DNA from: Octopus sinensis
Taxonomy: Eukaryota
Assembly (NCBI RefSeq): GCF_006345805.1
Contig: NC_043001.1
Span: 1,798,001 to 1,862,000 of the forward strand
Length of the DNA stretch: 64,000 bases
Direction: 5' to 3'
A model generated the notes under the pieces. That model saw nothing but the letters and a program-made list of their open reading frames with translations, was not told the DNA's origin and did not search any database. Of the stretch, positions 4,953 through 60,811 are shown in pieces. The position numbers and the translations under genes are program-made. The first letter of the stretch is position 1; each line of letters starts with the position of its first letter.

Positions 4953-5345
4953 TCATCGTCATCATCGTTTAACGTCCGCTTTCCATGCTGGCATGGGTTG
5001 GATGATTTGACTGAGAGCTGGCGAACCAGATGGCTGCACCAGGCTTTAATCTTGATCTGGCAGAGTTTCTACAGCTGGATGCCCTTCCTAATGTCAACCA
5101 CTCCAAGAGTGTAGTGGGTACTTTTATGTGCCACAGGTACGGAGCCAGTCAGGTGGTACTGGCAACGACCTCACTCGAATCTTTTACACATGCCACCGGC
5201 ACAGGTGGCAGTGAGGCGATGCTGGTACCAATCATGCACGAATGGTGCCTTTTATGTGCCACCAGCACGGAGGCCAGATAGCCTCTCTGGCAATGATCAT
5301 GCTCAGATGGTGCTCTTAACACCCTACTAGCACAGGGCTCAAGTC
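4953..5345 (-). mobile_element. RTE 3' UTR/tail fragment
   Basis: (cat)n-cgtttaacgtcc..ccatgctggcatggg terminus and ~60-bp internal repeats, same family as the 3' end of the RTE at 34221-36076. Confidence 0.85.
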
Positions 5346-11864: not shown

Positions 11865-12129
11865 TCATCATCATCATCATCGTTTAACGTCCGTTCTCCA
11901 TGCTGGCATGGGTTGGACGGTTCGACTGGGGATCTGGGAAGCCAGAAGGCTGCATCAGGCTCCAGTCTGATCTGGCAGTGTTTCTACAGCTGGATGCCCT
12001 TCCTAACGCCAATCACTCCGTGAGTGTAGTGGGTGCTTTTTATGTGCCACCTGCACAGGTGCCAGGCGAGGCTGGCAATGGCCACAATCAGATTGGTGCA
12101 TTTGTGGTTTGTCTGCCTTTCTACTTATT

Positions 12130-12177
<48 letters not shown>

Positions 12178-13480
12178 ACACACACATGTATATATATACA
12201 TATATGTATGTATATATATATATATGTATTTTACGTGCCACCAGCACAGAAGCCAGTCGAGGTGGCGCTGGCATCGGCCAAGTTCGGATGGTGCTTTTTA
12301 CGTGCCACCAGCACAGGGATCACAACTGCAGTTTCCATTGATTTTGATGTTGGTGTACTTGACTCAATGGATCTCCTCAAGCACAGGGTTAAATTGGTGT
12401 TTCTTCACTTGCCACCTGCACAGGAGTCAGTCCAGCGGTCCTGGCAACTGTCGGGGGCCAGTCATAGGATTGGTTCAATTTCGATTTCACTTGCCCCAAC
12501 AGGTCTTCACAAGTAGAGTTTAGTATCCAATGAAGGGAGGTTGGCATGGGTGATGTCGTCAGATGAGGTTCGGTTTCGACTTTGCTTGCCTCAACAGGTC
12601 TTCGTGTGTCCAAGGGAGGAAAGGCATGCATAAGTGGGCTGGACTCACTTGTCCTGCCGGGTCTTCTCACGCACAGCATATTTCCAAAGGTCTCGGTCAC
12701 TAGTCATTGCCTCGGTGAGGCCTAAAGTTCGAAGGTTGTGCTTCACCACCTCGTCCCAGGTTTTCCTGGGTCTACCTCTTCCACGGGTTCCCTCAACTGC
12801 TAGGGATTGGCACTTTTTCACACACCTATCTTCATCCATTCTCACCACCTGACCATACCAGCGCAATCGTCTCTCTTGCACACCACACCTGATGCTTCTT
12901 AGGTCCAACATTTCTCTCAAGGTACTTACACTCTGTCGAGTATGAACACTAACATTACACATCCATCGGAGCATACTGGCTTCATTTCTTGTGAGCTTAC
13001 GCATGTCCTCAGCAGTCATGGCCCATGTTTCACTGCCATGTAGCATGGCTGCTTGTACACATGCGTCATACAGTCTGCCTTTTACTCTCAGCGAGAGGCC
13101 TTTTGTCACCAGCAGAGGTAAGAGCTCTCTGAACTTTGCCCAGGCTATTCTTACCCTAGCAGTTACGCTTTCAGCACACCCACCCCCGCTACTGACTTGG
13201 TCACCTAGGTAATGGAAGCTATCAACTACTTCTAGTTTTTTCCTCCTGGAAAGTGACAGAATTTGTTTTCTGCAGATTTTCAGTGTTTATTGCTCCTGAG
13301 CATCTGCCACATACAAAAACTATCTTCCCAGTTAGCCTTCCTTTGACATTGCTGCACCTCTTATGTGTCCATAGCTTACACTGGGTACATCTTATAGAGT
13401 TTCTACCTACGCCTTTTCTACAAATCTAGCAGGGCCATCTACCTGAAGGCATTTGTGGTTTGTCTACCTTCCTACTTATT

Positions 13481-13482
<2 letters not shown>
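11865..13482 (-). mobile_element. 5'-truncated RTE-clade LINE (PHD-like finger, RT thumb, C-terminus, long 3' UTR, (GAT)n tail); 3' UTR interrupted at ~12100-12228
   Basis: ORF 12645-13109 KGRLYDACV..MLHGSETW..MLRWMC..RRLRWYGQVVRM..GRGRPRKTW, typical of the RTE C-terminus; upstream LEVVDSFHYLG. Confidence 0.92.
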
Positions 13483-13547
<65 letters not shown>

Positions 13548-13580
13548 AATATATAAATGTGTATATATATATATATATAT

Positions 13581-14004
13581 CATCATCATCATCATCATCA
13601 TCATCGTTTAGCATCCGTTTTCCATGCTAGCATGGGTTGGACGGTTCTACTGGGGTCTGTGAAGCCAGAAGGCTTCATCAGGCCCAGTCAAATCTGGCAG
13701 TGTTTCTACGGCTGGATGCCCTTCCTAACGCCAACCACTCCGTGAGTGTAGTGGGTGCTTTTTACGTGCCACCCGCACAGGTGCCAGACAGAGCTGGCAA
13801 ACGGCCACGAACGGATGGTGCTTTTTATGTGCCACCGGCACAAGGGCCAGGCGAGGTTGGCAACGGACACGAAACGGGGCGGTGCTGGCAACGGTCACGA
13901 AACGGAAGGTTCTCTTACATGCCACCGGCACTGGTAACACATCTGCAATTTCCATTGATCGATTTCCATTTCTGATCCTCACTTGCCTCAACGGGCCTTC
14001 ACAA
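13581..14004 (-). mobile_element. RTE 3' UTR/tail fragment (young, CpGs retained)
   Basis: (cat)n tail, ccatgctagcatgg palindrome, tandem gtgccaccggcac units. Confidence 0.88.
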
Positions 14005-14209
14005 GTATATAGATATAGATATAGATATATACATATATATATAAATGTATATATATATATATATATACACACACACATATATATATACATATATGTATGT
14101 ATATATATGTATGTACATACAAGCATACATACACATTTTTTCATGTCTAAGTACATGGATGCAAAACCGGGTGAAGAAAATAGCATGCAAATACAAAAAG
14201 TAGAGAAAA

Positions 14210-14380
14210 CATGTTTTGTTGAAGCTGGAAAACTTCACAAGCTGTTACTCAGAGTTTCAATTTTTTTATGGTTTGCAAATGACAGTATTTTCTAGAAACT
14301 CACTTCTGTCTGATAAATAGGTATGCAAAACTCTGAGTAATGGTTTGTGAATCTTTTCAGCTTCAGTAAAACCAAACATA
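14210..14380. repeat. Inverted repeat / small MITE
   Basis: tgaagctggaaaacttcacaagctgttactcagagttt versus RC of right arm tgaagctgaaaagattcacaaaccattactcagagttt. Confidence 0.7.
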
Positions 14381-14471
14381 CACACACACACATACAGGTA
14401 CAAATATATTTCCAGGTAAGTTATATGTTTCACATATTTTGTTACCCTATGAGTTGATTATCTGCATATAC

Positions 14472-14748
14472 GTCGGCTGCGGGGGTTACTCCGAAAAGCT
14501 CTATCTGCGACCATTTCATCTCAATCGAAGGAGAGGGGCTTTCTCCGTCCGGGTTGCAGATCCGTGGAATAAGCTGCCGGACGAGATAGTGAAGATGCTG
14601 ACGACTGCTCGGTTCAAAGTCTCCCTTGACCACAAGTGGCCTGAACTCTTTACATGAACACCACCCAGTACATAACTCCATGTCCCCCTACATGGCCTTG
14701 CTTTTTGCTTTTTGAGCCAAAAAATCAACTAACTAACTAACTAACTAA
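14472..14748 (+). mobile_element. Short CR1 3' fragment with (AACT)n tail and 7-bp TSD
   Basis: Closely similar to 16760-17030; catatac at 14465-14471 and 14749-14755. Confidence 0.88.
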
Positions 14749-14776
14749 CATATACAGTTTGCAGTATGTATGTATG

Positions 14777-14890
14777 TCATTGTTCAGTTTTATTTCAAGA
14801 TTTCTTGCCAATAGAGAAAGAGCTGGTTTCTAACCTAGATCCAATGCTCCTTCATTGGAATTTGAACATGAACAACAAGTTATTTTTGTT
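14777..14890 (-). mobile_element. Probable 3' terminus of a (CATA)n-associated R4-like family
   Basis: Resembles termini at 55737-55810 and 56743-56815 (tt.(a/t)gtttt..ggtttc.aac..agat.caa); tatg repeats on both sides. Confidence 0.45.
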
Positions 14891-15269
14891 TGTATGTATA
14901 CACACACACATTATATACAACAGATGCAGATTTAGATTAAAATAGCACCCTGTATATTATACTTAAAACAACCATAGCATTCGTTTGAAGACATCTCTTA
15001 TAGACCTATTGTTTAAAACCACAAATACATCAGGCACAGAATGTAGTAATAAGAATGCTAGTCAGACATTTCTACTTCAATGGGTTTTGTCTATTGTAGT
15101 ATGCTTCTGCCAAACACTTGCTAAGAAAAATATCTGCCGATCCTGATAAAGGATAACAGTGCTCCAAAGATCACGGCCTTTGCAATTAGCTGCCTGGCTC
15201 AATACAAATCTGGATACACACAGAAGAAGCAGCATCAGATTGAAAATAATGATCTGTCTATTCTTTTCC

Positions 15270-15660
15270 ACTCTTTCAACCTTTCACTATGTTTCAGTAA
15301 TTAGGCTGTGGCCATGCTGGGGTACTGCCTTGCAGATTTTTTGCTGAACAAATCAATCCCAGAGATTATATTTTTTCAAGCCTGGTACTTATTCTATCGG
15401 TTTCGTTTGCCAAACAAGTTATGGTGACATAAACACACCGACAGTGGTTGTCAGGTGGCGGGGTGGGGGGAATGCAGAAATAAAGAAACACACACACACA
15501 TACATGTGACAAAATTCTTTCTGTTTCCGTCTGCCAAATTTACTCACAATACTTTGGCCAGCCTGACACTATAGTAGAAGACATTTGCTCAAGGTGCCAC
15601 GCAGTGGGGCTGAGCCCAGAACCATGTTGGTGGGAAGTAAACTTCATTCAGTACAACCAC
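15270..15660 (-). mobile_element. CORE-like tRNA SINE, decayed
   Basis: Homologous along its length to 37459-37872. Confidence 0.8.
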
Positions 15661-15699
15661 GTAAATATATTGTAAAAAGCGGCATCCTCTTATTTCTCA

Positions 15700-15860
15700 T
15701 CTGTATGGCTGTATTACCAGGCTGTTCTCTACTCCCTCATTGCAATATGCTTGCATTAAGTACGACATTAGAGTTTTGAAAAGTTTATAAACTCATCAAC
15801 CACTCTAACGTCAAGGTCAGTTACTCCTGCAATACATAACATCACTTCAAGCATTCCGTG
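15700..15860 (+). pseudogene. Penelope-like element linker fragment (5' part, split by CR1 insertion)
   Basis: YKLINHSNVKVSYSC, matching the PLE KIFNRNTVKVSYSC motif. Confidence 0.6.
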
Positions 15861-15864
15861 TTAC

Positions 15865-17031
15865 AGCAAATGTTGACATCGTTTTATTGGACTTTGCCAA
15901 AGCTTTGGACTCGGTTAACCTATTACTTGTCAAGCTTCAAGCATATAGTTTCCATCCGGATATTGTACGATGGGTTGGTGTTTTCCTCTCAGATCACTCC
16001 TTCCAAGTCCAAGTTAATGGTTCGCTGTCCAACGTCTCCAGTGCGAGCAGTGGTGTGCCTCAAGGTTCAGTGCTTGGGCCGTTATTGTTTTTAGTCTTCA
16101 TAAATGACTTGCCCGACGACCTCACACAACACACCCTTCTATTTGCCGACGATGTCAAACTGGTCGCTCCTCGCAGTGATATAGAGGATCTTCGTCGATG
16201 TCTCCACCAAATTTGGAGATGGTCTAATGAATGGGACCTGTGTCTGAACGTGTCAAAGTGCTGTCATCTGCCTGTTGGCTCCTCTCCTGCAGCTCAACTT
16301 GATTTTGAGCCGGGTGGTCTGCTGCTGGAGAGGACCGACCAGGTAAAGGACCTGGGTATCTTGGTGGATTCCTCCTTTTCGCCTTTGGCTCAGTGTGTCC
16401 ATGCTGCCAACAAAGCACACGGAATTCTGTTCTTGATTCGATGGTCATTCGGAATGCTCACAGCAGCCATATTCCTACCGCTCTATGTCACGCTGGTGAG
16501 ACCCATATTGGAGTACGGGATTCAAGCCTCTTCTCCTTATCTCCTCAAAGACATACATCATCTCGAAAGAGTCCAGAAGCTGGCTACCTGCATGGTTCTT
16601 GGTTTCAAGAATTTGTCTTATGAAGAAAGGCTGAAGACACTCAATCTTTATTCTCTAGAAAAGCGATGACGCTGTGCTGATCTCATTCTTGCTCACAACA
16701 TCATAAGCAGAAAGTGTAACCTCTCGAAAGAACTGTTCTTCACTCCTGCTCCAGAGTCTCGACTGCGGGGTCACTCCGAAAAGCTCTATCTGCGACCATT
16801 TCATCTCAATCGAAGGAAAGGGGCTTTCTCCGTCCGGGTTGCGGATCCGTGGAATAAGCTGCTGGACGAGATAGTGAAGATGCCAATGACCGCTCGGTTC
16901 AAAGACTCTCTGGACCAGAAATGGCCTGAACTCTTTGCATGAACACCCTCCCTGTACATAACTCCATGTCCCCCTACATGGCCTTGATTTTGCTTTTGGA
17001 GCCAAAAAATTAACTTAACTTAACTTAACTA
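15865..17031 (+). mobile_element. 5'-truncated CR1-clade LINE, reverse transcriptase
   Basis: DFAKALDSV..SGVPQGSVLGPLLFLVFINDL..LFADDVKL..KDLGILVD..LVRPILEY..LERVQ..SYEERL..LRGHSEKL; (AACTT)n tail; premature stop at 16667-16669. Confidence 0.95.
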
Positions 17032-18005
17032 ATTACATACCTACTATGTCTCTAATCCACGCCCCGACTTGTAACAGCCAAAATCTTACCAACTGCCCTC
17101 TGCTGGAAGGATCCTAACTCTCTAAGGCAGTACTCTATATGGTCATCCATTCTCTATACATTAGTATCACAAGGCTCTACACAGACATGACAGCCAATAA
17201 TCTTAAAAGAAGGTAAACACAGCACATGGATACCTTCAGATGCTGGGATGGGAAAAGTTTTGCTTCCCTTTCTCATTACATCTGGAGACTCCATGACCAT
17301 ATCAGAACCACTTCCCTTACAACAAAAAGAGCATCGTTGCTAGTTTCCCCCTTACTCAGCAGGAGCTCACAATTCCCACCTCTGTTTCTGTGAGAGACTA
17401 CACATACTCCACCAGTGTCCAGCGTTAATGAATGAGAAGGATAAAGTACTTTATTGTTGCCTCCAAACATACAACTTGTTAATGAACTTAAAGGCTCTGC
17501 CAGTTGATAACCCAGATATATAACCCTAGACTTAGCTGTCCACACACACATGGCTAGGTCATTATATCCTTGCTGCCCAACCACAATAGTAACAATGCAA
17601 CACCATCAAATTTATTTAGCCCCACATAAAGCCTGATGCTGCTAATGAGTTCATGCTCCCCTAACAATGACTGTGCCACTGAGCCACACCAACATCCCAC
17701 CTGACCAAGCGTGGCACTCGTTACTTGGAACTGATGTTACTGAATACACCATGCCGCAGCCTGCCACCAAAGTGATGTCAGTGCCCTGCCAACATCTTGT
17801 ACAAGTATGGGGGCCTAAAAATGAAAAAAAAATGAAGAAAAAAACTGGGGTCACTTTGACAGTTTTAATATCATTTGATTTGTGCTGACCAACAGAAGCC
17901 TAAACACCTAGCAACCATCTTGAATGTCTTTCAAAAGCCCCATTCTGTCCTCAGCATCTGATGAGATGGATGTGTTCTGTGTGTCCAAGTCACGTGCAGC
18001 TGAGT
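17032..18005 (+). pseudogene. Penelope-like GIY-YIG C-terminal fragment and 3' region with hammerhead-like relic
   Basis: CNS.NLTNCPL..QHMDTFR..SLSHYIWRL..PYSAG..HLCFCERLHIL..LMNEKDK, the order expected for a PLE C-terminus. Confidence 0.6.
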
Positions 18006-18601
18006 CAAGCTGTTAGTAAATATACACACACACACGCACTCACACATACATGCACACACACGTATGTTATTTAAAAATCTATAGAAATATTCAAATATAA
18101 TGATGTGGAATGATTTGATGCCAGGGGGGTGAAAATGCCATTTTCATGTACTTTGCATGCAAGCGTTTGTGTGTAGAATAATTTTTGCTTTGTTACTACA
18201 GTACAAAAGAACTTTTAAAAATATATCACCCATGCGTTTTTCTTATTCTTCCTATTCACACTTTAACTCTCTCTTCTGCATATACATATACATATACACA
18301 CATATTCCAACATATACACATATTTATACATTTGCATTCATGCAGCCATTTACACAGACTCCCACTCGATAAGGAAAACCTATTCGAATGTAAGACTGAT
18401 AGAAAGATGTATCTAGAAAATAAAATTGAAGAATGATATTAAGGTGATGGATGAATGGATTGAGTTGGATGACTAAAGAATAAAGAGTAAGCGGAAGTAG
18501 ATGAGGAATGGGAAAAGACAAAAAAAATATCTCCTTTGTATGCATGATTGATATACTTACTTATACGCATACATATCTATGCATTATATACATATGTATA
18601 C

Positions 18602-18633
<32 letters not shown>

Positions 18634-18656
18634 TATATATATATGTATATATATAT

Positions 18657-18691
<35 letters not shown>

Positions 18692-18723
18692 TTATGTATG
18701 TATATGTGTATATATAAATATGA

Positions 18724-18754
<31 letters not shown>

Positions 18755-18985
18755 TACATCTCTATATAAGATACATGCATGCATATATATGTAAATATAT
18801 ATATATATATTTATATATGTATCTATATATATATATATATATTTATATATGTATACATAAATATGAATATATATATATAGTTCATATTTGTATTTGGTTT
18901 GCAAGATTCAATAGTATATATATATATATATATATGCATCATTTATATGTTTATCTTATATGTGTGTGTGTCTGTACATACACAT

Positions 18986-19023
<38 letters not shown>

Positions 19024-20754
19024 CCATACGTATCTCCATTTCAAAACTCATTAAATTCTAACCGCAGGATACTGGCACGGTGATATCTTTGTATTGTTAT
19101 CATGTTTTCTTTGTGTCTAACTTTTCCATTTTCCTTATGCATTTCAGTTATTTATTTGGATTGCAAATTCCACATTACTTATCTAAAACCTGTTGGCGTA
19201 TCATATATTAAGGATTTCTTACTTTGGCAGAGACCTACAGAATTGTTGGGGCAGAGGCGTTATCAGTTCAACAACTTGCTGTACCTGATGGGTGCTTATA
19301 ACCACATCCAGAGATTGCAAGAAATTAGAATATAATCTGATAAAATTTCAACTCAGAATATGTAAGTGTGTGGGTGTGGGGGGGGGGAAGAAGTTCTACG
19401 TGGTTTTGGGTTCGGTCCCAGCATGTGAAAACTTGCACAAGTGTCTTCTACAATAGACTTGGACCAACCAACCAATGGCGGTGAGCGAAATTGGAAAATG
19501 AAACCCTGTAAAGATGCCTTTCATGTATGTGTGGGTGAGAGTATGTGTGTGTGTGTGTGCATGCACATGTGTGTGTGTGTGAGTTCATAGTGAAAGAGAA
19601 AGAGAGAGAGAGGTAGAGAGGTGTTTTCATGTCCTGGTCATGATAACAAGAAAGGAATGAATGTTAGAACTAGAGTAGATGTAATTAGATAACCTTCTCC
19701 TCCTCCTCCTCCCCTCCTCCTCTCCAACCATTTCCTCCCCCCCTCTTCCCCTTCCCTCTTCCCCTTCCCTCTTCTCAACATCATTTAAAGTCCAAGTTCC
19801 GTATCCGTAGCACGACACCTTTACTCCATGACCATGGTGTGTTTCCACCAAAGTGTTTTGGGTTAAGTTTCAGAATTTTGGTCGGAGCAGTAGAGAAAGA
19901 AGAAGAAAGAGGAAGGAAAGAAGCGAACAGGACGAATGAATGGGCGAGGTGGGGAAGGGGGAAGAAGAGAGGGGATGAAAGATGAATGAGAGAAAGTGAA
20001 GAGGAAAGTGTCAGGGGAGAGAGAGAGAGAGAGCATTAGAGAGGGAGAATATTTGGTTAAAGAATGAAAACAAGGAAGGAAGGTGAGAGAGAGAGAAGAG
20101 AGAAAAGAGAGAAAGAGAGATCCATTCAAAATGTTGAAGAGTGTCGGGACTTTAGAGGACAAGAAGGGAGGTTGGGGAAAGAAAGTACAAATTTTGGCCT
20201 TTGACCTCATAGTAAATAAAGCAGTAAGGGAGTATTAGTGATGGAGGCGGTGGTGGTGATGCTGGTAAGCAAAATAAAATGATCAGTTTATTGGGAGTCC
20301 AAAGAAATGAAGAAGCAAGATGAGCAAAAGTAAGAATAATGGTCTGGCATGTTGTGAGAAGCTGGTTGTTCGGCAGACAAGGACAAGTCCTTGTAAAATA
20401 GCATTAGTCTTTCTTATTTGCAACAACTCTCAGTTATGATTAGCAGAGGTTTTTTTTGGAATTTGTACAAAGCTGTTACTCTGTCGTCCTGTCTTTTGAG
20501 ATGTAAGCTGTTGGTAGCAACTTTTCCACAACATATAAGCACCATTAACTGCAATGATCCTGAGAAATGGGTTTTGAACTGCACAAGGTTTGTTCTGCAG
20601 GAAGCATTCATCCGGCATAAAAAGGCAGACTCCAGGAAGTCTACTTGTTAAATGTTGGTTCTTCCTTCTTCCTGGCTTTGCTTGGTGTCATCAATTTCTG
20701 TAGCACTCAAGCCTCTGCGTAGCTGTTTTCTATTGTGTGTGTGTGTGAGACTGT

Positions 20755-21188
20755 AAGCATGGCCTATGCCAGTCCAGCATAACCAGCCCATTTAAGGGCA
20801 CTCTTCATTCATTGGGTAATAAACTGTGCTTGCAAAGACTGTTGAGGCAAGTAAAGTTGTGCCGGTGGCACATAAAAAAAAACAATTCAAGCTTGGTCGT
20901 TGCCAGTGCCGCCCGACTGATCCCCATGCCGGTGGCACATAAAAAGCACCATTCAAGTGTCACTGATGCCAGTACCACCTGATTGGCCCTCGTGCTGATG
21001 GTACATAAAAGCACCCACTACATTCTCAGAGTGGTTGGTGTTATGAAGGACATCCAGCTATAGAAACTTTGCCAGATTTGAATGTAGCCTGGTGCAGCCT
21101 TCTGCCTTGCCAGTCCTCAGTCAAACCGTCCAACTCATGCCAGCATGGAAAACAGATGTTAAACGACAACGACAATGATGATGATGAT
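20755..21188 (+). mobile_element. RTE 3' UTR/tail fragment
   Basis: Ends catgccagcatggaaaacagatgttaaacgac..gatgatgat. Confidence 0.85.
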
Positions 21189-21247
21189 ATATATATATAT
21201 TATATAATATCTATCTATTTATATATATATTATATACATATATTATA

Positions 21248-21284
<37 letters not shown>

Positions 21285-21675
21285 ATATATATTATTATAT
21301 ATTATATATTATAGTACAATTTACTAGACCTTCAGATTTTAATATGTTAGACCACTGGTGTTAAATTGATGTTAATTTAATTTAATTAATATCCAATTTC
21401 TCACCGTCATTTTAAATAAAAATACATATGTATATATATACACATATGAATATATGTGTATATATTTATGCTCCTGTCTCACTCTTTGTATTCTTTTTCT
21501 TTTCTTCCCCCCTCTCTCTCTTTACTCTTTCGTTCTCTATGCTCTTTCTCTTTTCCCCTCCTTCTCGCTCTTCCTGTGTTAGTGTACGTGTGTCTATATA
21601 TGATTATGATGATATACATATATGTATGATATATATATATATATATATTATATACATATATTATATATATATATA

Positions 21676-21929
21676 TGTGCCGGTGGCACATTAAAAGCAC
21701 CAACCGATCGTGGCCGATGCCAGACTCCCCTGGCACCTGTGCCGGTGGCACGTAAAAAGCACCCACTACACTCGCGGAGTGGTTGACATTAGGAAGGGCA
21801 TCAAGCTGTAGAAACACTGCCAGATCTGGCTGGAGCCTGGTGCAGCCCCTGGCTTCCCAGACCCTGGTCGAACTGTCCAATCCGTGCTAGCGTGGAAAAT
21901 GGACGTTAAACGATGATGATGATGATGAT
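21676..21929 (+). mobile_element. RTE 3' UTR/tail fragment
   Basis: gtgccggtggcac units; ends ggacgttaaacgatgatgatgat. Confidence 0.88.
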
Positions 21930-22056
21930 ATATATATATTATATATTATAATACAGTTTACTGAACCTTCAAATTTTAATATGTTAGACCACTGGTGTTA
22001 AATTGATGTTAATTTAATTAAATTAATATCCAATTTCTCATTTTCATACATATACA

Positions 22057-22100
<44 letters not shown>

Positions 22101-22396
22101 TAAAACAAGAGGTAGAAGGGATTCATAAATCCAGGCAGATATCTTGAAGGCACTCAGCATTGAGTGAATTTGGTTAACTACATGAAACAATTGGATACCA
22201 GAATTGACATCCACGGTAATTGCCTGTGTATGATCTATAAATCCAAATAGCAGTCCGAAGAATTTCAAGAATCCAGTGTATGGAACACCATGAACTGGAA
22301 TGGAGAAAAACCACATCTTTAATTCATGATTATACCACACATTACCGACAGCCTATATATAGAACTCTACTATCTCCATCTATTTAACTCTCATAT

Positions 22397-22446
22397 CGTC
22401 TCTGATGAATGGATATCCTTCATATCCTTGAAACAGCTGTAAGGTT
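22397..22446 (+). ncRNA. Minimal type I hammerhead ribozyme motif in a probable PLE terminal repeat (22100-22510)
   Basis: GUCU-CUGAUGA-AU-GGAUAU(CCUUC)AUAUCC-UU-GAAAC-AGCU-GUA-AGGU: core intact, palindromic stem III ACAGCUGU, GUA cleavage triplet. Confidence 0.75.
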
Positions 22447-22564
22447 ACCTTTCTCTTTATAAATGTCCTAGAAATTTTGAACTGCCTTGGCTTTACTGTC
22501 TTATTTTATTTAACACACACACACATATATATACATACATGTATGTATGTATATATCTATATCT

Positions 22565-22595
<31 letters not shown>

Positions 22596-23009
22596 TATAT
22601 ATATTATCCATCGTAAATATTGGGTGGATTTCCACCATTTTACAATGAAGATTCAGTTGTTTAATTAAACTGAATTAATGTAAAGTGGCTGAGTACATCA
22701 CACACATATGTATGTTTTCCAACAATGCTGTACCTTTTAAAATTGCAGCCAATAGTTTGCAACTACTCAATTTCCCTCCCAAGGTTTGGTTTGAGGCTAG
22801 AGGAGTAGCCTTGGCCCAAAATGCTTTGCAGAAAGATCAAAGCTGTCACCTCTACTTCTAAAGTGAACTCCACAACCATTTAGCCAGACAGAGCCTACAC
22901 ATATACATGTGTGCATGCATGCTCCCACACTCATGCTTGTACACACATTAATGAACAGGATTTAACATGTATAGGGATAAGTTCATACACATTTGCATAC
23001 ATACATGGA

Positions 23010-23347
23010 AGGAAGGCCCCCTTTGGTCATGAATGCCCATGGGATTGCACCTAGAAAGTGCCCTTCCGAGGCACAAGTTCAAGCAAGGTCGTTTATGAAA
23101 GACCAGTGGTTGTCCATGCATACCACCCTCTTCTCTCTCCATGCCACCGATGCTATCCAAGGGAAAGGCAGAGGGGCCGATACAGCTTGGCACCAGTGAT
23201 GCTGCAACTCATTTCTACAGCTGAGTGAACTGGAGCAACGTGAAATAAAGTGTCTTGCTCAAGAACACAACACACAGCCTGGTCCAGGAATTGAACTCAC
23301 TACCTCATGATTGTGAGCCCAATGTTCTAACCCCAAGCCATACACCT
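23010..23347 (-). mobile_element. tRNA-derived SINE with Meta-like core
   Basis: RC: tggcttggggttag..gagttcaattcc..ttgagcaagacactttatttcacgttgctccagttcactcagctgtagaaatgagt. Confidence 0.8.
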
Positions 23348-24899
23348 TGATCAGTTGAAACCTTGGGACAGGATTAATCCCCATCCAGGCTGTTTGCATC
23401 TTGCTGTATGCCTTCACTCACAAGCCCATACTTATCTACCTACTGACTTACATACACACATACATACATACATACATATGCATGTATATGTTGATTTTTA
23501 TGTATATCTATTTTAATGTGTTGAGAGATAAGTTAAAACAAAAACTTGACATTATCTGATGAAGCACTCAATAGATAAAGTTAAATAATTACTTATTCAT
23601 GAAAATATTGATTGTGACTTTGAAGTTGCTCATAAAACAAGGCTTATTTCTGAGATATTAGAAAATAATATGAAACCCATTCATAAGGATCCCTTAAGAT
23701 GGGCGACTTTAAATAACTAATGTCTTGCATCCACCCCTTACGGATGGAGACACGAAAAACCATGGTAGGGCTAGGCAAAGCAAGGTAAGTGAATCAAAGT
23801 TCACAGGTGAGGGAAAGATTATCAAATTAGATGCAACAGGGAGAGGTTAAAAGTGTGTCGATGTAATTAGTGGCACTGGTAAACTTTCAATGAATTGGAA
23901 TCTTGAGAATAAGGATTCTTGCCTGAGCATAATCCATATTTATAGAAAGTGAAAGTAAATAACCATAAAATTGGATGTATTTTATGTCATTATTATAAAG
24001 ACAGGTATTGGAATTTAGAATGATCCTGTCATATTAATATGGTGAATTCCTGTATTAGGTTTTGATTTAAAGTTTGAGGAGGTAATGTTATTGCAAAATA
24101 GAAGTACTCTAAACATGTGCTTGTTAGTTATAAATTCTTGAATAGGGCTATTAATTGCATTGTTAATGAGAATTCTTACCTTATCCTTAATGGTAGCATC
24201 TCATAAATATAGCGCTGTTTTGGTTTCATATATATCTACAGAGTAGATATCTTGACTGTCATTATTTAATGCCATGTAAAAATAAACTGGTGAAGTAACA
24301 CTTTTTGGCCTATTTGAGATGTTAAAGAAGTGGGTTTGAATTGTAAGTTTCAGTTAACGTTAAAAATGGTCAGAGAATCGGTGGAGGAATTATAAATGTA
24401 GAAAGATAGTTATTTGTATTTGTCTACAAAGGTTGTTTAGGTTCATTCAAGTAAACGTGAAAGATTTATGTATTCAGGAACATATTATCAATTTAATGGT
24501 TAATAAATTAAAAAGTAGAAACTTTGGTTACAGACTTGATTAAAGTAAAATAATAGATTGGTTGCTGTAATGGAGGTTCAGAGGTATGTTCCTTACAGAT
24601 TTCAACAGCACTATCTTCAGATACATAAGTACTTACCTGCACAGTATTATTAAGATGTTTTTAGAAAATATTTCTTAGACCATCTACCCCCTCATCACAT
24701 ATATATAACAGGCAGAAGAAAGCACTCTCAAAAAGTGGATACTAAAAGGAGATGAAATACGTCCATAATACTAGATTAACCTTTAAAAAATAGCTTAGAG
24801 AAGTCAGGTTGTTTGAAATGTCCTTTAATCTTGGGATCACCCTTGTAATCAAAGTCTTAAAATTAAAGCATTTTCTCTAACTCACAAATACCACAAAAT

Positions 24900-33489: not shown

Positions 33490-33813
33490 TCTGGGGTCCG
33501 TTCCGGTGACATGTAAAAGACACCATTTGAGCATGATCGTTACCAGCATTGCCTTACTGGCACCTGTGCCAGTGGTATGTGTAAAAGATTCGAGCGAGGT
33601 CGTTGCCAGTACCACCTGACTGGCCCTCATGCTGGTGGCACGTAAAAGCACCCACTACACCCTCGGAGTGGTTGACGTTAGGAAGGCATCCAGCTGTAGA
33701 AACTCTGCCAGATCAAGATTGAAACCTGGTGCAGCCATCTGGTTTGCCAGCCCTCAGTCATTCGTCCAACCCATGCTAGCATGGAAAGCGGACGTTAAAT
33801 GATAATGATGATG
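33490..33813 (+). mobile_element. RTE 3' UTR/tail fragment
   Basis: Ends ccatgctagcatggaaagcggacgttaaatgataatgatgatg. Confidence 0.88.
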
Positions 33814-34134: not shown

Positions 34135-34220
34135 CAATGGCGTAGTGGTTAAGAGCATGGGCTACTAATCCCAAAATTCCAAGTTTGATTCCAGGCAGTG
34201 ACCTGAATAATAATAATAAT
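34135..34220 (+). mobile_element. tRNA-derived SINE head (pol III A and B boxes) followed by (AAT)n
   Basis: A box TGGCGTAGTGG 34138-34148, anticodon-like arm ggg-ctactaat-ccc, B box GTTTGATTCC 34183-34192. Confidence 0.75.
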
Positions 34221-36076
34221 CATCTTCATCGTTTAACGTCCACTTTCCATGCTGGCATGGGTTGGACAGTTTGACTGAGGACTGGCGAACCAGATGGCTG
34301 CACCAGGCTCCAACGTGATCTGGCAGATTTTCTACAGCTGGATGCACCTCCTAATGCCAACCACTCCAAGCGTGTAGTGGGTGTTTTTACGTGCCACTGG
34401 CACGAGGGCCAGTAAGGCGGTACTGGCGATGGCCATGCTCAAATGCTGTTTTTTATGTGCCACCTGTACAGGAGCCAGTCCAGCAGCACTGGCAACGATC
34501 TCGGTGGAATGTTGTTTTTCACTGGCCACCGGCACAAGTGCCAGTAAGGCAACGCTGGTAACGATCACACTCGAATGGTGCATTTTATGTGCTACTGGCA
34601 TGGGAGCCCGTCAGCAACCCTGGCAACAATCATACTTGGATGGTGCTTTTAACGTTCCACTGGCAGAGGTGCCAGTCAGGCAGTGCTATCATCGGCCACA
34701 TCAGCGAATTTGATTTTGATTGTGATTTCACTTACCTCAACAGGTCTTCAGAAGCAAAGTTTAGTGTCCAATGAAAGAAAGGTATGCATAAGTAGGCTGG
34801 TTGCACCCCTGGCATAGGCCACAGGTTATGTTCCCACTTGGCTTGTTGGGTCTTCTCAAGCACAGCATATTTCCAAAAGTCTCGGTCACTAGTCAGTGAG
34901 GCCCAATGTTCGAAGGTCGTGCTTCACCACCTTATCCCAGGTCTTCCTGGGTCTACCTCTTCCACAGTTTCCCTCAACCACTAGGGTGTGACTTTTTGAC
35001 ACAGCTATCCTCATCCATTCGTACCACATGACCATACCAGCACAGTCGTCTCTCTTGCACACCACATCTGATGCTTCTTATGTCTAACTTTTCTCTCAAG
35101 GTACTTACACTCTGTTGTGTATGCACACTGACATTACACATCCAGTGAAGTATACTGGCTTCATCCCTTACAAGTTTGGGCCCATGTAGCATGGCTGTTC
35201 ACACACATGCATCATACAGTCTGCCTTTTACTCTGAGCAAGAGGCCCTTTGTCACCATCGTAGGTAAGAGCTCTCTGAACTTTGCCCAGCTATTCTTATT
35301 CTAGTAGCTACACTTTCAGAGCATCTACCCCCACTACTGACTTGGTCACCTAGGTAATGGAAGTTATCAACTACTTCTAGTTTTTCTCCCTGGAATGTGT
35401 CGGAAGTTGTTCTCTGCACATTTTCAGTGTTTATTGCTCCTGAGCATTTGCCACATACAAAAACTATTGTCCCAGTTAGCCTTCCTTTGATATTGCTGCA
35501 CCTCTTATGTGTCCATAGCTTACACTGGGTACATCTTATGGAGTTTCTACCTATGCTTTTTCTACAGATCCAGCAGGGCCATCTACCTGAAGGGACTTGT
35601 GGTTTGCCTGCCTTACTACTTATTAGGACTTTGGTTTTAGTTACGTTGACTCTAAGGTCCTTTGATTCTAATCCTTGCTTCCACACCTGAAACTTCTCCT
35701 CTACTTCTGATAGTGACTCAGCAATAAGAGCAAGGTCATCAGCATAGAGGGGCTCCCAGGGGCATCCTGTCTTGAATTCCTCTGTTATTGCCAGGGGGAC
35801 TATGATAAATAGGAAGGGGCTGGCACAAACCCAAACTGCATCTGTAATTATTTGTATCTAATGCATCACCTTTACCCTTGTGGCAGTTGACTATAGTGCT
35901 GCCACACCAGTCATTGGGTATGACTCCTTTGTGTATCACCCCGTTAACTGTACGGATGACTAAGCTATAGCCGACACTGCCAGATATTTTGAGCATCTTT
36001 GCAGTGATTCCTGATGGGCCGGGGGCTTTCCCTGTCTCCATACCCTTAATTGCTTTATCTTTATCTACCAAGGCAC
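34221..36076 (-). mobile_element. 5'-truncated, internally deleted RTE-clade LINE
   Basis: GKAPGPSGIT..IPNDW..KGKGDAL..NYR | deletion | LLYADDLA..VNVTKTKVL-PHD-LEVVDNFHYLG..RRLCWYGHVVRM; taataataataat at 34208-34220 and 36077-36089 is compatible with a TSD. Confidence 0.92.
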
Positions 36077-36231
36077 TAATAATAATAATATCGAAAAATA
36101 CCTTAGGAATGAGAACCCAGGTTCAAAATGTCCCCAAGACAGCTGATGAAGGCTGGAGGGTATATCAGCTGAAATGTTGTGCTAACAACAAGCAAGAAGA
36201 GAACATTTATCTGTCAAATGTAAATAATGTA
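36077..36231 (+). ncRNA. Short repeat tail containing a degenerate minimal hammerhead motif (36138-36183)
   Basis: CUGAUGA-A-GGCUG(GAGGGUAUAU)CAGCU-GAAAU-GUU-GUG; core present, stems I and III partly mismatched. Confidence 0.6.
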
Positions 36232-36824
36232 GAATATTTTTGTCTGAAGGACTTACAGCACTTGTTAGAAACCATTCTCCTTTTTATATCCTCTATAATG
36301 ATATCTCGTCTTTGGTTCCACGCCACAATCCAGGTATGGTCTCTGGTGTCTGCCTGGATTCCAAAATCTTACTTCAGTCTATTTGCTGGCATAGTGTATC
36401 AAGAACAACATAATTCAAGGTATCTTTTCTTTTTGAAGTGTATAGAGAGAAATCAGAGGATCTAATTGCAATGTCTTGGAGATCAAGGAATTCCATAGAA
36501 TATCCTCCCTCAACACAAGCATTTTTGTTGGCTCATGTCCATCGTTGCTGCTGATCTGCTGTTGTGGATGATGAGGATGCTGATGATAGTGGGAGGCATT
36601 GGTTGTGGGCAATGAGGAAGAGCTTAACAGTTGGCAATGATGACAGGGGTGGTGGTGGTGGTTTGGCGTTGTTGTTGTTGGTGTAAGGTGGGGATGGTAC
36701 AGGTGTTGGTGATGATGATGATGAGGAAAGGAACAAAGTGGAAGAAGTGGTGGTTGAGGGGGAAAATGATTGATGATAGATGACAATTTTGTGATGGCAT
36801 TGACAGGAATAATGCTGCTGACGA

Positions 36825-39928: not shown

Positions 39929-40682
39929 CATATATATATGCTTGCATTTGTATGTGTATATATATATATGCATCTCTGATACTGTGGTATATGTGGAAGC
40001 ATTTCCATAAGAGGCTGCTAAATGAAGAATTTGAATGGAGTAAAGATTAGCTAACCTAGTTTGAGTTGGTTGAGATGCAAGCTCGATAGATCACAGCAGT
40101 GTCTGTAAATAAGTCTATCCAAGGAGATAAAAGCCGGGCAAGCTGCCAAGCCCTCTGGTGTTGTTGAGATAGTCTACAGGTAGAATTAGTAACACAGTTA
40201 AAAGAAATCACTACTAAAATGGACTTATCACGTGTCACAGGTATTGTTAATTTCCATAAAAAGATATAAACGCTACGTTATGATTTTATTTTAGGAAATG
40301 GCTTATTGGCTGAAAAGTGGTCTGGTGAAGATATTTTTGAAGATTGAACAGAACAAAGGAGGAAAAAAAAGTGTTCACGGTTATGCGTAATGTGTGTGTG
40401 TGCATGCATGCATGCATGTGTGTGTGACACTTTTAGTGTGTATTTGTGTGTGTGTATATATCCCCTTCCTCCTCCCCTTATCATTCTGCATAAGTTTCCA
40501 TGCATGCAGAGATCAGATATATATGTATGTATATATCTATATATGTGTGTGTGGGTGTATGCGTGTGCATGTATATATATATATGAGCACATGCATATAC
40601 ACACACACATATGTTTATATGTGCATGTATATATACATATATATACATCCATCCATCCATATATATATATATAATATATATA

Positions 40683-40726
<44 letters not shown>

Positions 40727-41470
40727 TATATATACATGTACATATATATATGCTTGCATTTGTATGTATATATATATATATGCATCTCTGATACTGTGGT
40801 ATATGTGGAAGCATTTCCATAGGAGGCTGCTAAATGAAGAATTGAATGGAGTAAAGATTAGCTAACCTAGTTTGAGTTGGTTGAGATGCAAGCTCGATAG
40901 ATCACAGCAGTGTCTGTAAATAAGTCTATCCAAGGAGATAAAAGCCGGGCAAGCTGCCAAGCCCTCTGGTGTTGTTGAGATAGTCTACAGGTAGAATTAG
41001 TAACACAGTTAAAAGAAATCACTACTAAAATGGACTTATCACGTGTCACAGGTATTGTTAATTTCCATAAAAAGATATAAACGCTACGTTATGATTTTAA
41101 TTTTAGGAAATGGCTTATTGGCTGAAAAGTGGTCTGGTGAAGATATTTTTGAAGATTGAACAGAACAAAGGAGGAAAAAAAAGTGTTCACGGTTATGCGT
41201 AATGTGTGTGTGTGCATGCATGCATGCATGTGTGTGTGACACTTTTAGTGTGTATTTGTGTGTGTGTATATATCCCCTTCCTCCTCCCCTTATCATTCTG
41301 CATAAGTTTCCATGCATGCAGAGATCAGATATATATGTATGTATATATCTATATATATGTGTGTGTGGGTGTATGCGTGTGCATGTATATATATATATGA
41401 GCACATGCATATACACACACACATATGTTTATATGTGCATGTATATATACATATATATACATCCATCCAT

Positions 41471-44777: not shown

Positions 44778-45135
44778 AATGTATATATGTGTAAGTGTAT
44801 ATATATGTAAGTATATATATATGTGTGTGCCAGTGTATATATGTGTGCCAATGTATATATGTGTAAGTGTCTATATATGTAAGTATATATATATGTGTGT
44901 GCCAGTGTATATATGTGTGCCAATGTATATATGTGTAAGTGTCTATATATGTAAGTATATATATATGTGTGTGCCAGTGTATATATGTGTGCCAATGTAT
45001 ATATGTGTAAGTGTCTATATATGTAAGTATATATATATGTGTGTGCCAGTGTATATATGTGTGCCAATGTATATATGTGTAAGTGTATATATATGTAAGT
45101 ATATATATATGTGTGTGCCAGTGTGTGCCATGTGT
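44778..45135. repeat. Minisatellite, 72-bp unit, ~5 copies
   Basis: Unit starts at 44778, 44850, 44922, 44994 and 45066; near-identical. Confidence 0.92.
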
Positions 45136-51795: not shown

Positions 51796-52068
51796 ATGAT
51801 GACGATCATCATCATCGTTGTTTAATGTCTGCTTTCCATGCTGGCATGGATTGGATGGTTTGACTGACGGCTGGCAAGCTAGAAGGCTGTGCCAGGCTCC
51901 AATCTAATTTGGCAAGGTTTCTACAGCTGGATGCCCCACCTAACACCAACCACTCCAAGAGCGTAGTGGGTGCTTTTTACATGCCGCTAGCATGAGGGCC
52001 AGTCAGGCTGTGGCATCGGCCATGCTTGAATGGTGCTTTTTATGTGCTACCAGTGCAGGAGCCAATCA
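51796..52068 (-). mobile_element. RTE 3' UTR/tail fragment
   Basis: catcatcatcg..ccatgctggcatgg..ctacagctggatgcc family sequence. Confidence 0.85.
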
Positions 52069-60587: not shown

Positions 60588-60811
60588 ACATGAAGTAAAC
60601 TCAGGTAGATTATAGCCATACCTGCCTACAACATGAAGCAAACTCAGGTAGATTATAGCCATATCTGCCTACAACATGAAGTAAACTCAGGTAGATTATA
60701 GCCATACCTGCCTACAACATGAAGTAAACTCAGGTAGATTATAGCCATACCTGCCTACAACATGAAGCAAACTCAGGTAGATTATAGCCATATCTGCCTA
60801 TAACATGAAGC
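60588..60811. repeat. Minisatellite, 43-bp unit, ~5.2 copies
   Basis: acatgaagYaaactcaggtagattatagccataYctgcctaca repeated without spacers. Confidence 0.95.

Follow-up and report, generated by a model that had tools for sequence, protein, structure and literature searches.

A tRNA-headed, hammerhead-bearing octopus repeat as the very probable pseudo-LTR of a Penelope/Poseidon-type retroelement

The window analyzed here is a stretch of 64,000 nt from Octopus sinensis (contig NC_043001.1, positions 1,798,001 to 1,862,000). At 34135–36231 it contains a tRNA-derived head, an AAT tract, a minus-strand fragment encoding reverse transcriptase (RT), a repeated 13-mer and a hammerhead core, all of which were found in the sequence as the preliminary description had listed them (Table 1). 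The A and B boxes of the head are separated by a 33-nt spacer. The insert at 34221–36076 encodes the end of an RT domain (RVT_1) and a PHD/C1 finger, and has a 66-bp tandem repeat in its 3′ UTR and a microsatellite at its 3′ end. Its nearest protein cluster is labelled Mollusca, the RT end and the PHD finger are the parts seen, and 'RTE' is a putative clade name for it. Copies of the 13-mer lie at 34208–34220 and 36077–36089, on either side of the insert; because uninterrupted AAT tracts span 12–204 nt (60 copies), the 13-mer is not provable as a target duplication as opposed to a simple split of the tract. The tract is likewise split by other repeats in L143, L150, L122, L024 and L020, and since such interruptions are frequent it seems to be a favored target of LINE-type insertion. 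The same RT-PHD LINE family has left more pieces at 33500–33810, 4959–5336, 11872–14292, 20857–21921 and 51810–52067 of the window, most of them 3′ ends bearing a 63–66-bp tandem repeat. To the right of the element, short broken frames on the minus strand (36293–36532) resemble a decayed coding fragment. Elsewhere in the window, an identical stretch occurs at 40539–40609 and 41353–41423 (814 nt apart), and two young minisatellites have units of 72 bp (44778–45124, 99% matches) and 43 bp (60588–60810, 96%).

Table 1. Features of the repeat in the window (positions of the window, strand and remarks)
Feature	Position	Strand	Remarks
tRNA-derived head of the pseudo-LTR	34137..34206	+	span of family homology; 5′ end clipped by 6 nt
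Pol III A box, TGGCGTAGTGG	34138..34148	+	matches the SINE consensus in the cited part of PMC8969392
Pol III B box	34182..34192	+	one CpG-type change in the window copy
(AAT)n tract, left part; 5′ leader of the next ORF	34207..34220	+	
Later, unrelated insertion: 5′-truncated, broken LINE-type fragment	34221..36076	-	
(AAT)n tract, right part	36077..36089	+	possible 13-nt target duplication
'Tail': end of the leader and first 123 nt of the Penelope-type ORF	36090..36231	+	short-class 3′ end
Predicted ATG of the 835-aa RT + GIY-YIG frame	36109..36111	+	majority-column frame open from this ATG
Minimal type I hammerhead within the ORF	36138..36183	+	damaged in this copy; predicted cut between 36178 and 36179

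The hammerhead of the window copy differs from the common form of the family by four changes: two mismatches in stem I, GAAAU in the core and a G-U as the first pair of stem II. Neither the head nor the ribozyme of this copy was called by ARAGORN or Rfam; for a better family copy, Rfam gave a tRNA match of only 14.4 bits (E 3.8, below threshold) and did not match the hammerhead. The 3′ end falls at position +123 of the ORF, in the shorter of two end classes, and in many other insertions the tail extends about 30 nt further. The match of this copy to P0003, a protein relative of the family, is only a weak pairwise one (E 0.065). The window copy is probably a dead short insertion that was hit afterwards by the LINE fragment, and the damage to stem I and the GAAAU core agree with the earlier judgment that it is probably inactive.

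In the 2.72-Gb genome assembly, the head, (AAT)n and the hammerhead tail make up a single dispersed unit about 250–290 nt long. Among loci taken from the best 40 of about 2,000–2,500 candidates per search, head and tail were linked in 27 of 29 cases anchored on the head and in 24 of 29 anchored on the tail, which upholds the earlier proposal of a single unit and opposes a chance co-insertion of two repeats in an AAT tract. An intact 46-nt hammerhead has 761 exact copies in the genome (0 for the reversed control), and exact 25-mers number 735 just upstream of the head, 2,447 at the head start and 6,092 at the tail start. Calibrated copy numbers are about 1,700 for the upstream sequence, 14,000 for the head (8,000–31,000) and 18,000 for the tail (14,000–24,000). 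Short, SINE-like copies are estimated at 15,000 (estimates 14,000–18,000), and solo short copies outnumber ORF-bearing ones by about 10:1. The flanks of the insertions are AT-rich (75% AT). Contig runs of three further coded species labels also contain pieces of pseudo-LTR and ORF. Some loci (L217, L218, L219 and L233; L366 and L367) are near-identical and lie on different contigs or 39 kb apart, representing segmental duplications or assembly redundancy.

The sequence upstream of the head, common to nine early loci, translates as the end of a GIY-YIG endonuclease, and in coding copies the head starts about 30 nt past the GIY-YIG stop codon. Head or tail lay directly downstream in 28 of 30 GIY-YIG-anchored loci (one of them the query), and the tail lay directly upstream, in the same direction, in 25 of 30 ORF-start loci, a set that includes duplicates (L209 repeats L205, and four loci are near-identical). 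Walking upstream revealed RT motifs and, in L179, a natural open frame of 551 aa. GIY-YIG was read from motifs and homologues; searches with L179 gave no match in the local Pfam, a weak RT-only match in NCBIfam and none in the PDB. Units of pseudo-LTR, ORF and pseudo-LTR in direct orientation are present at L174, L388/L192, L397 and L399, and the order of elements is ORF stop, head, (AAT)n, ATG, hammerhead and the rest of the ORF. In the majority columns the frame is open from the ATG in the tail for 835 aa (full relatives have 781–855 aa), and the 'tail' corresponds to the first 123–154 nt of this ORF; P0003 aligns from residue 11, across the peptide encoded by the hammerhead. The protein carries a YVDD motif and has 1,703 homologues, which have RT and two other Pfam domains in common. 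Its closest relatives (P0001–P0013) are 54–68% identical. The zinc-finger linker between RT and endonuclease of Neptune type, present in L091 and L095, is absent.

Because the ORF stop precedes the head and the ORF begins in the tail, the repeat is not a separate SINE with the tail of a partner, as had been supposed. Almost certainly it represents a pseudo-LTR belonging to a Penelope/Poseidon-type element, with the tail forming the 5′ coding end of the ORF. Two other suggestions of the preliminary description are borne out: an autonomous Penelope-like element (PLE) with the tail exists, as the ORF-bearing element adjoins both head and tail, and the GIY-YIG linkage, RT frame and insertion structures point to Penelope rather than LINE machinery. 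No intact copy was found, with a full open frame in 0 of 58 matches to a distant relative under the stricter criteria of a first look, and copies differ from the majority columns by 5.7% on average; for both reasons the family looks inactive as far as seen. A sister family of the same clade was not found in the genome, all 30 loci fetched belonging to the family itself.

Neptune-type families, identified by a Pfam GIY-YIG scan of the genome, were rejected as partners of the unit, as none of 30 + 20 loci has the tail. As a separate observation, L091–L110 comprise several such families, which are young, have intact ORFs of 760–880 aa in many equally scoring copies and each carry a minimal hammerhead of their own; in L091 a 479-aa open frame lies just upstream of the RT ORF.

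The insertions have a characteristic structure. Of 88 loci, 52 have an inverted arm upstream, arranged head to head, and none has one downstream. Among 127 3′ ends, 69 lie in the ORF between about +115 and +132, 50 between about +146 and +155, and 8 are shorter, so that two classes about 30 nt apart hold 119 of them. Of 41 inverted pairs, 37 could be classified, and 32 of these combine a long end with a short one (Fisher p = 7e-6). Inverted arms and end extension match the Penelope hallmarks described in the cited part of PMC8557442. In the anole Poseidon, according to the sections of PMC11167929 drawn on here, such hallmarks arise from two internal RT start sites, one 111–118 nt into the ORF and the other 30–40 nt further on, and the template needs the first 172 nt of the ORF; the equivalent ORF-start region of the octopus family contains a predicted stem-loop (z −2.15). 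The Poseidon element PAc of Anolis carolinensis, as presented there, shares with the octopus element a single ORF with RT and C-terminal GIY-YIG, a pseudo-LTR that covers the ORF start, a hammerhead that overlaps the ORF 5′ end, two ends 30–40 nt apart at about 110–160 nt into the ORF, and AT-rich flanks. The distance from ATG to cut site differs (70 nt here, 26 nt in PAc), and the octopus head has a probable tRNA-derived promoter, whereas none is described for PAc in those sections of PMC11167929.

These structures bear on the reading of the repeat as a classical LINE-dependent SINE, driven for example by an RTE element and carrying Penelope sequence by chance. Such a SINE would have a tRNA head with A and B boxes, a length of 250–290 nt and a high copy number, as observed, and duplications of 8–9 nt, possibly of the target site, do flank 3 of 14 solo copies, a set in which some copies are misclassified as solo. 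However, the 3′ ends are internal to the Penelope ORF and bimodal, with no LINE-shared end, microsatellite or other simple-repeat tail encountered among them, the inversions are head to head, and the GIY-YIG ORF continues seamlessly on both sides. This reading is largely refuted, and we consider it the least credible of those discussed here.

The hammerhead named in the preliminary description holds up in the family form, which makes a 5-bp stem I, a 5–6-bp stem II preceded by an unpaired A, and a palindromic, loop-less minimal stem III, with GUU as the cut triplet. The isolated 46-mer folds stems I and II; in a context of 101 nt, the predicted fold lacks stem I (z −0.33). Among 107 copies that were not chosen for the hammerhead, the majority letter is intact at 46 of 46 columns and the whole core is kept in 21, the sole common non-CpG substitution being at the free core position 7 (17%). 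About one-fifth of copies (e.g. L045, L056 and L144) have an in-frame 3-nt deletion at hammerhead positions 39–41 that takes out the predicted cut site, which suggests either recurrent slippage or a subfamily whose spread needed no cleavage. The ends of the insertions are not determined by ribozyme cleavage: the 56 5′ ends within the tail are evenly spread, with no pile at the predicted cut site, and the 3′ ends lie 50–85 nt past it. This agrees with the insertion of Poseidon in vitro, which works without cleavage in the account cited (PMC11167929). The self-cleavage named in the preliminary description is a putative activity of the family hammerhead.

The family form resembles the minimal hammerheads of metazoan PLEs, as given in the cited portion of PMC4209133, in its 5-bp stem I, the unpaired nucleotide before stem II, the G10.1–C11.1 pair, the palindromic positions 15.2–16.2 and the absence of loop III, and in both sets most motifs are solo and some form close pairs on opposite strands. 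That portion of PMC4209133 takes the solo motifs as truncated elements and describes no pol III head upstream. In this genome, A and B boxes were found upstream of none of 10 other hammerhead sites, and in metagenome relatives (mostly one family) upstream of none of 8. Four metagenome contigs with distant relatives (L274, L281, L292 and L339) contain the hammerhead core GAAACGUU with different stems; these also have no A and B boxes upstream of the hammerhead.

The likeness to the Schistosoma Sm-alpha repeat, proposed in the preliminary description, fits only partly. Sm-alpha and Sj-alpha are short repeats in which a pol III promoter is followed by a type I hammerhead (PMC6765202, PMC6155905, as far as cited), and this combination of sequences is also found here. 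Sm-alpha is a tandem, non-coding repeat whose hammerhead is canonical and which is processed by cleavage (same sources), whereas the octopus unit is dispersed or head to head, carries a minimal hammerhead and belongs to an autonomous element; head-to-tail arrays are absent among 308 tail matches. Non-LTR retrozymes and non-autonomous Chlamys elements such as MRC1 are likewise short, non-coding and Penelope-related (PMC7229834, PMC8557442, bioRxiv 10.64898/2026.07.22.740005, in the parts cited); they are related to pseudo-LTRs or 3′ ends and are thought to use the Penelope protein (PMC7229834, PMC8557442). They form head-to-tail tandems, which the octopus unit does not, and no tRNA promoter is described for them in these parts. 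A retrozyme- or Sm-alpha-like cycle, in which hammerheads would cut multimeric RNA to monomers or circles that are then reverse-transcribed, could draw on the dimer-type hammerhead of the family, on the proposal that retrozymes are Penelope derivatives (PMC7229834; bioRxiv 10.64898/2026.07.22.740005) and on the joining of a pol III promoter and a hammerhead in Sm-alpha (PMC6765202, PMC6155905). We regard it as highly improbable here. The missing tandems, the 5′ starts that do not gather at the cut site, the copies with the cut site deleted and the 3′ ends well beyond it all speak against such a cycle.

Near the 5′ end of the family head, a consensus A box is followed after 33 nt by a B box, a spacing within the SINE-type range of 30–35 nt. 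The best match of the head is tRNA-Arg(TCT), with a score of 14 versus 9 for the next, in a comparison that covered the 6 isotypes retrieved from the genome, many isotypes lying outside this set. A different tRNA-derived repeat head, 68% identical to this one, occurs at L092:5357–5422, and is a possible source or sister of the captured promoter. Of 57 copies extending as far as the head, 50 end at its 5′ edge. The share was 24 of 27 in sets assembled without regard to the head and 26 of 30 in a set taken in genome order, and about 1 in 8 copies start upstream of the head. Seven head-plus-ORF copies were present among 15 regions fetched; five begin at −7 to +3 and extend 0.3–2.4 kb into the ORF, one of them reaching a second head, and two begin further upstream. 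A pol III start would be expected to leave a discrete RNA 5′ end some 13 nt ahead of the A box (PMC8969392, part cited). Raw RNA-seq reads of a related species label covered both strands equally, with no piles of starts or ends at the unit, and 78–89% of them continue into unlike sequence; the symmetric, pile-free pattern is explained by reads that reflect embedded copies. From the boxes and the 5′ ends we consider it likely that short templates are initiated by pol III at the head.

Alternatively, the element may be transcribed by pol II or by read-through, its 3′ UTR passively keeping an old tRNA or SINE fragment, and the short copies may be truncation products that result from a stop or fold-back at a small hairpin on the 5′ edge of the head. 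Penelope elements are heavily 5′-truncated (PMC8557442, part cited), some copies continue from the ORF into the head, and the use of the head by pol III is deduced from its letters. A 5-bp hairpin does lie exactly on the head boundary (−7 to +4), where longer RNA could fold back, and this coincidence accounts for the perfectly palindromic junctions. However, so short a hairpin would have to account for 50 of 57 stops falling within about 25 nt, with truncation points evenly spread elsewhere, and many copies begin at −4 to 0 without an inverted arm. The intact A and B boxes at SINE spacing also count against a passive head, as does a lack of TTTT that it does not predict. We regard this alternative as unlikely, although better placed than the retrozyme-like cycle or the LINE-dependent SINE.

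Pol III terminates at runs of at least four T residues, a general threshold that may not be the one in molluscs. In the majority columns, which represent one master sequence (a 2,356-nt ORF region and 569 nt of pseudo-LTR and ORF start), TTTT occurs 0 times on the coding strand versus 5.0 expected with the amino acids fixed (P = 0.002–0.005). Its frequency is 0.30/kb in natural copies (103 segments, not independent), 3.56/kb in metagenome relatives (30 of 80, chosen for long matches; none has zero) and 2.1/kb in 13 relatives of comparable T content. Each of four Neptune-type ORFs from the octopus genome contains 9–13 TTTT. The depletion is not confined to TTTT: A4 runs are also below the null (29 versus 38.7, P = 0.006), T3 runs are reduced, and G4 is absent as well, not significantly. 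A single decayed copy contains 2 TTTT versus 2.8–3.5 expected, which is too weak as a test, and short pieces of other elements have only 1–3 T4 runs (2 in 1.9 kb for the LINE piece of the window). The lack of TTTT fits selection on a full-length template made by pol III.

We propose that the tRNA-derived A and B boxes of the pseudo-LTR are probably an internal pol III promoter, and that RNAs started at the head are copied by the element's own RT/GIY-YIG protein. Pol III would start about 6–8 nt before the tRNA-like 5′ end of any intact pseudo-LTR, solo or terminal. The RNA would span at least the first 150 nt of the ORF and, by analogy with the anole Poseidon, would include the protein-binding site and two internal RT start sites, predicted here at about +125 and +154. 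Short RNAs would be complete templates, and a LINE-like 3′ end would therefore not be needed. Two RT starts per event would yield head-to-head pairs whose arms differ, one having the long end and the other the short. The ribozyme probably depends on dimer formation or on protein, and insertion would not require it. With no internal terminator, pol III could read from the upstream pseudo-LTR through the ORF and make a full-length template. That the coding element as a whole is transcribed end to end by pol III, from a captured tRNA promoter and on a strand purged of terminators, we advance only tentatively, with some doubt prevailing. Against pol III transcription stands the need to translate an uncapped RNA. 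The predicted 5′ leader (window 34207–34220 and 36077–36108) consists of an (AAT)n/(AAC)n tract that varies greatly in length. A/C-rich leaders aid cap-independent translation, and the tract recalls these, although this is speculative.

Octopus tRNA-derived SINEs named OK, OR1 and OR2 were reportedly described by Ohshima and Okada in 1994, with lengths similar to that of the unit. Some are said to be related to tRNA-Arg, and the work predates the links to Penelope and hammerheads. The short unit may, we presume, be OK, OR1 or OR2, beside which it is set here by description only. OR1 is listed as a CORE-SINE in the cited part of PMC4824008. Non-autonomous derivatives of Penelope elements are already known (PMC8557442 and PMC7229834, parts cited). 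A full-text literature search, seen as titles and starts of abstracts and covering few subscription journals, returned neither a Penelope element with a tRNA-derived promoter nor a hammerhead in an octopus SINE. The combination of a tRNA promoter and a hammerhead inside an autonomous element appears to be new.

By definition, SINEs are pol III elements dependent on LINE machinery; for Penelope elements, the promoter is presumed to lie in the pseudo-LTR of a partner in tandem. The octopus family joins a SINE-type pol III head with Penelope machinery and shows a way in which a SINE-like family can exceed 10,000 copies without a LINE. It bears on the choice of promoter in Penelope elements, on the role of their hammerheads and on their minimal RNA template, which here would be a natural one of about 250 nt with both predicted RT start sites. 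Annotators are warned that a tRNA-headed repeat showing head-to-head inversions may be a Penelope pseudo-LTR. The family also suggests that pol III can produce a coding retroelement of 2.7 kb. If transcription by pol III from end to end is true, the SINE and its autonomous partner would be one element, and a Penelope-driven SINE would have arisen from the terminal repeat of its parent.
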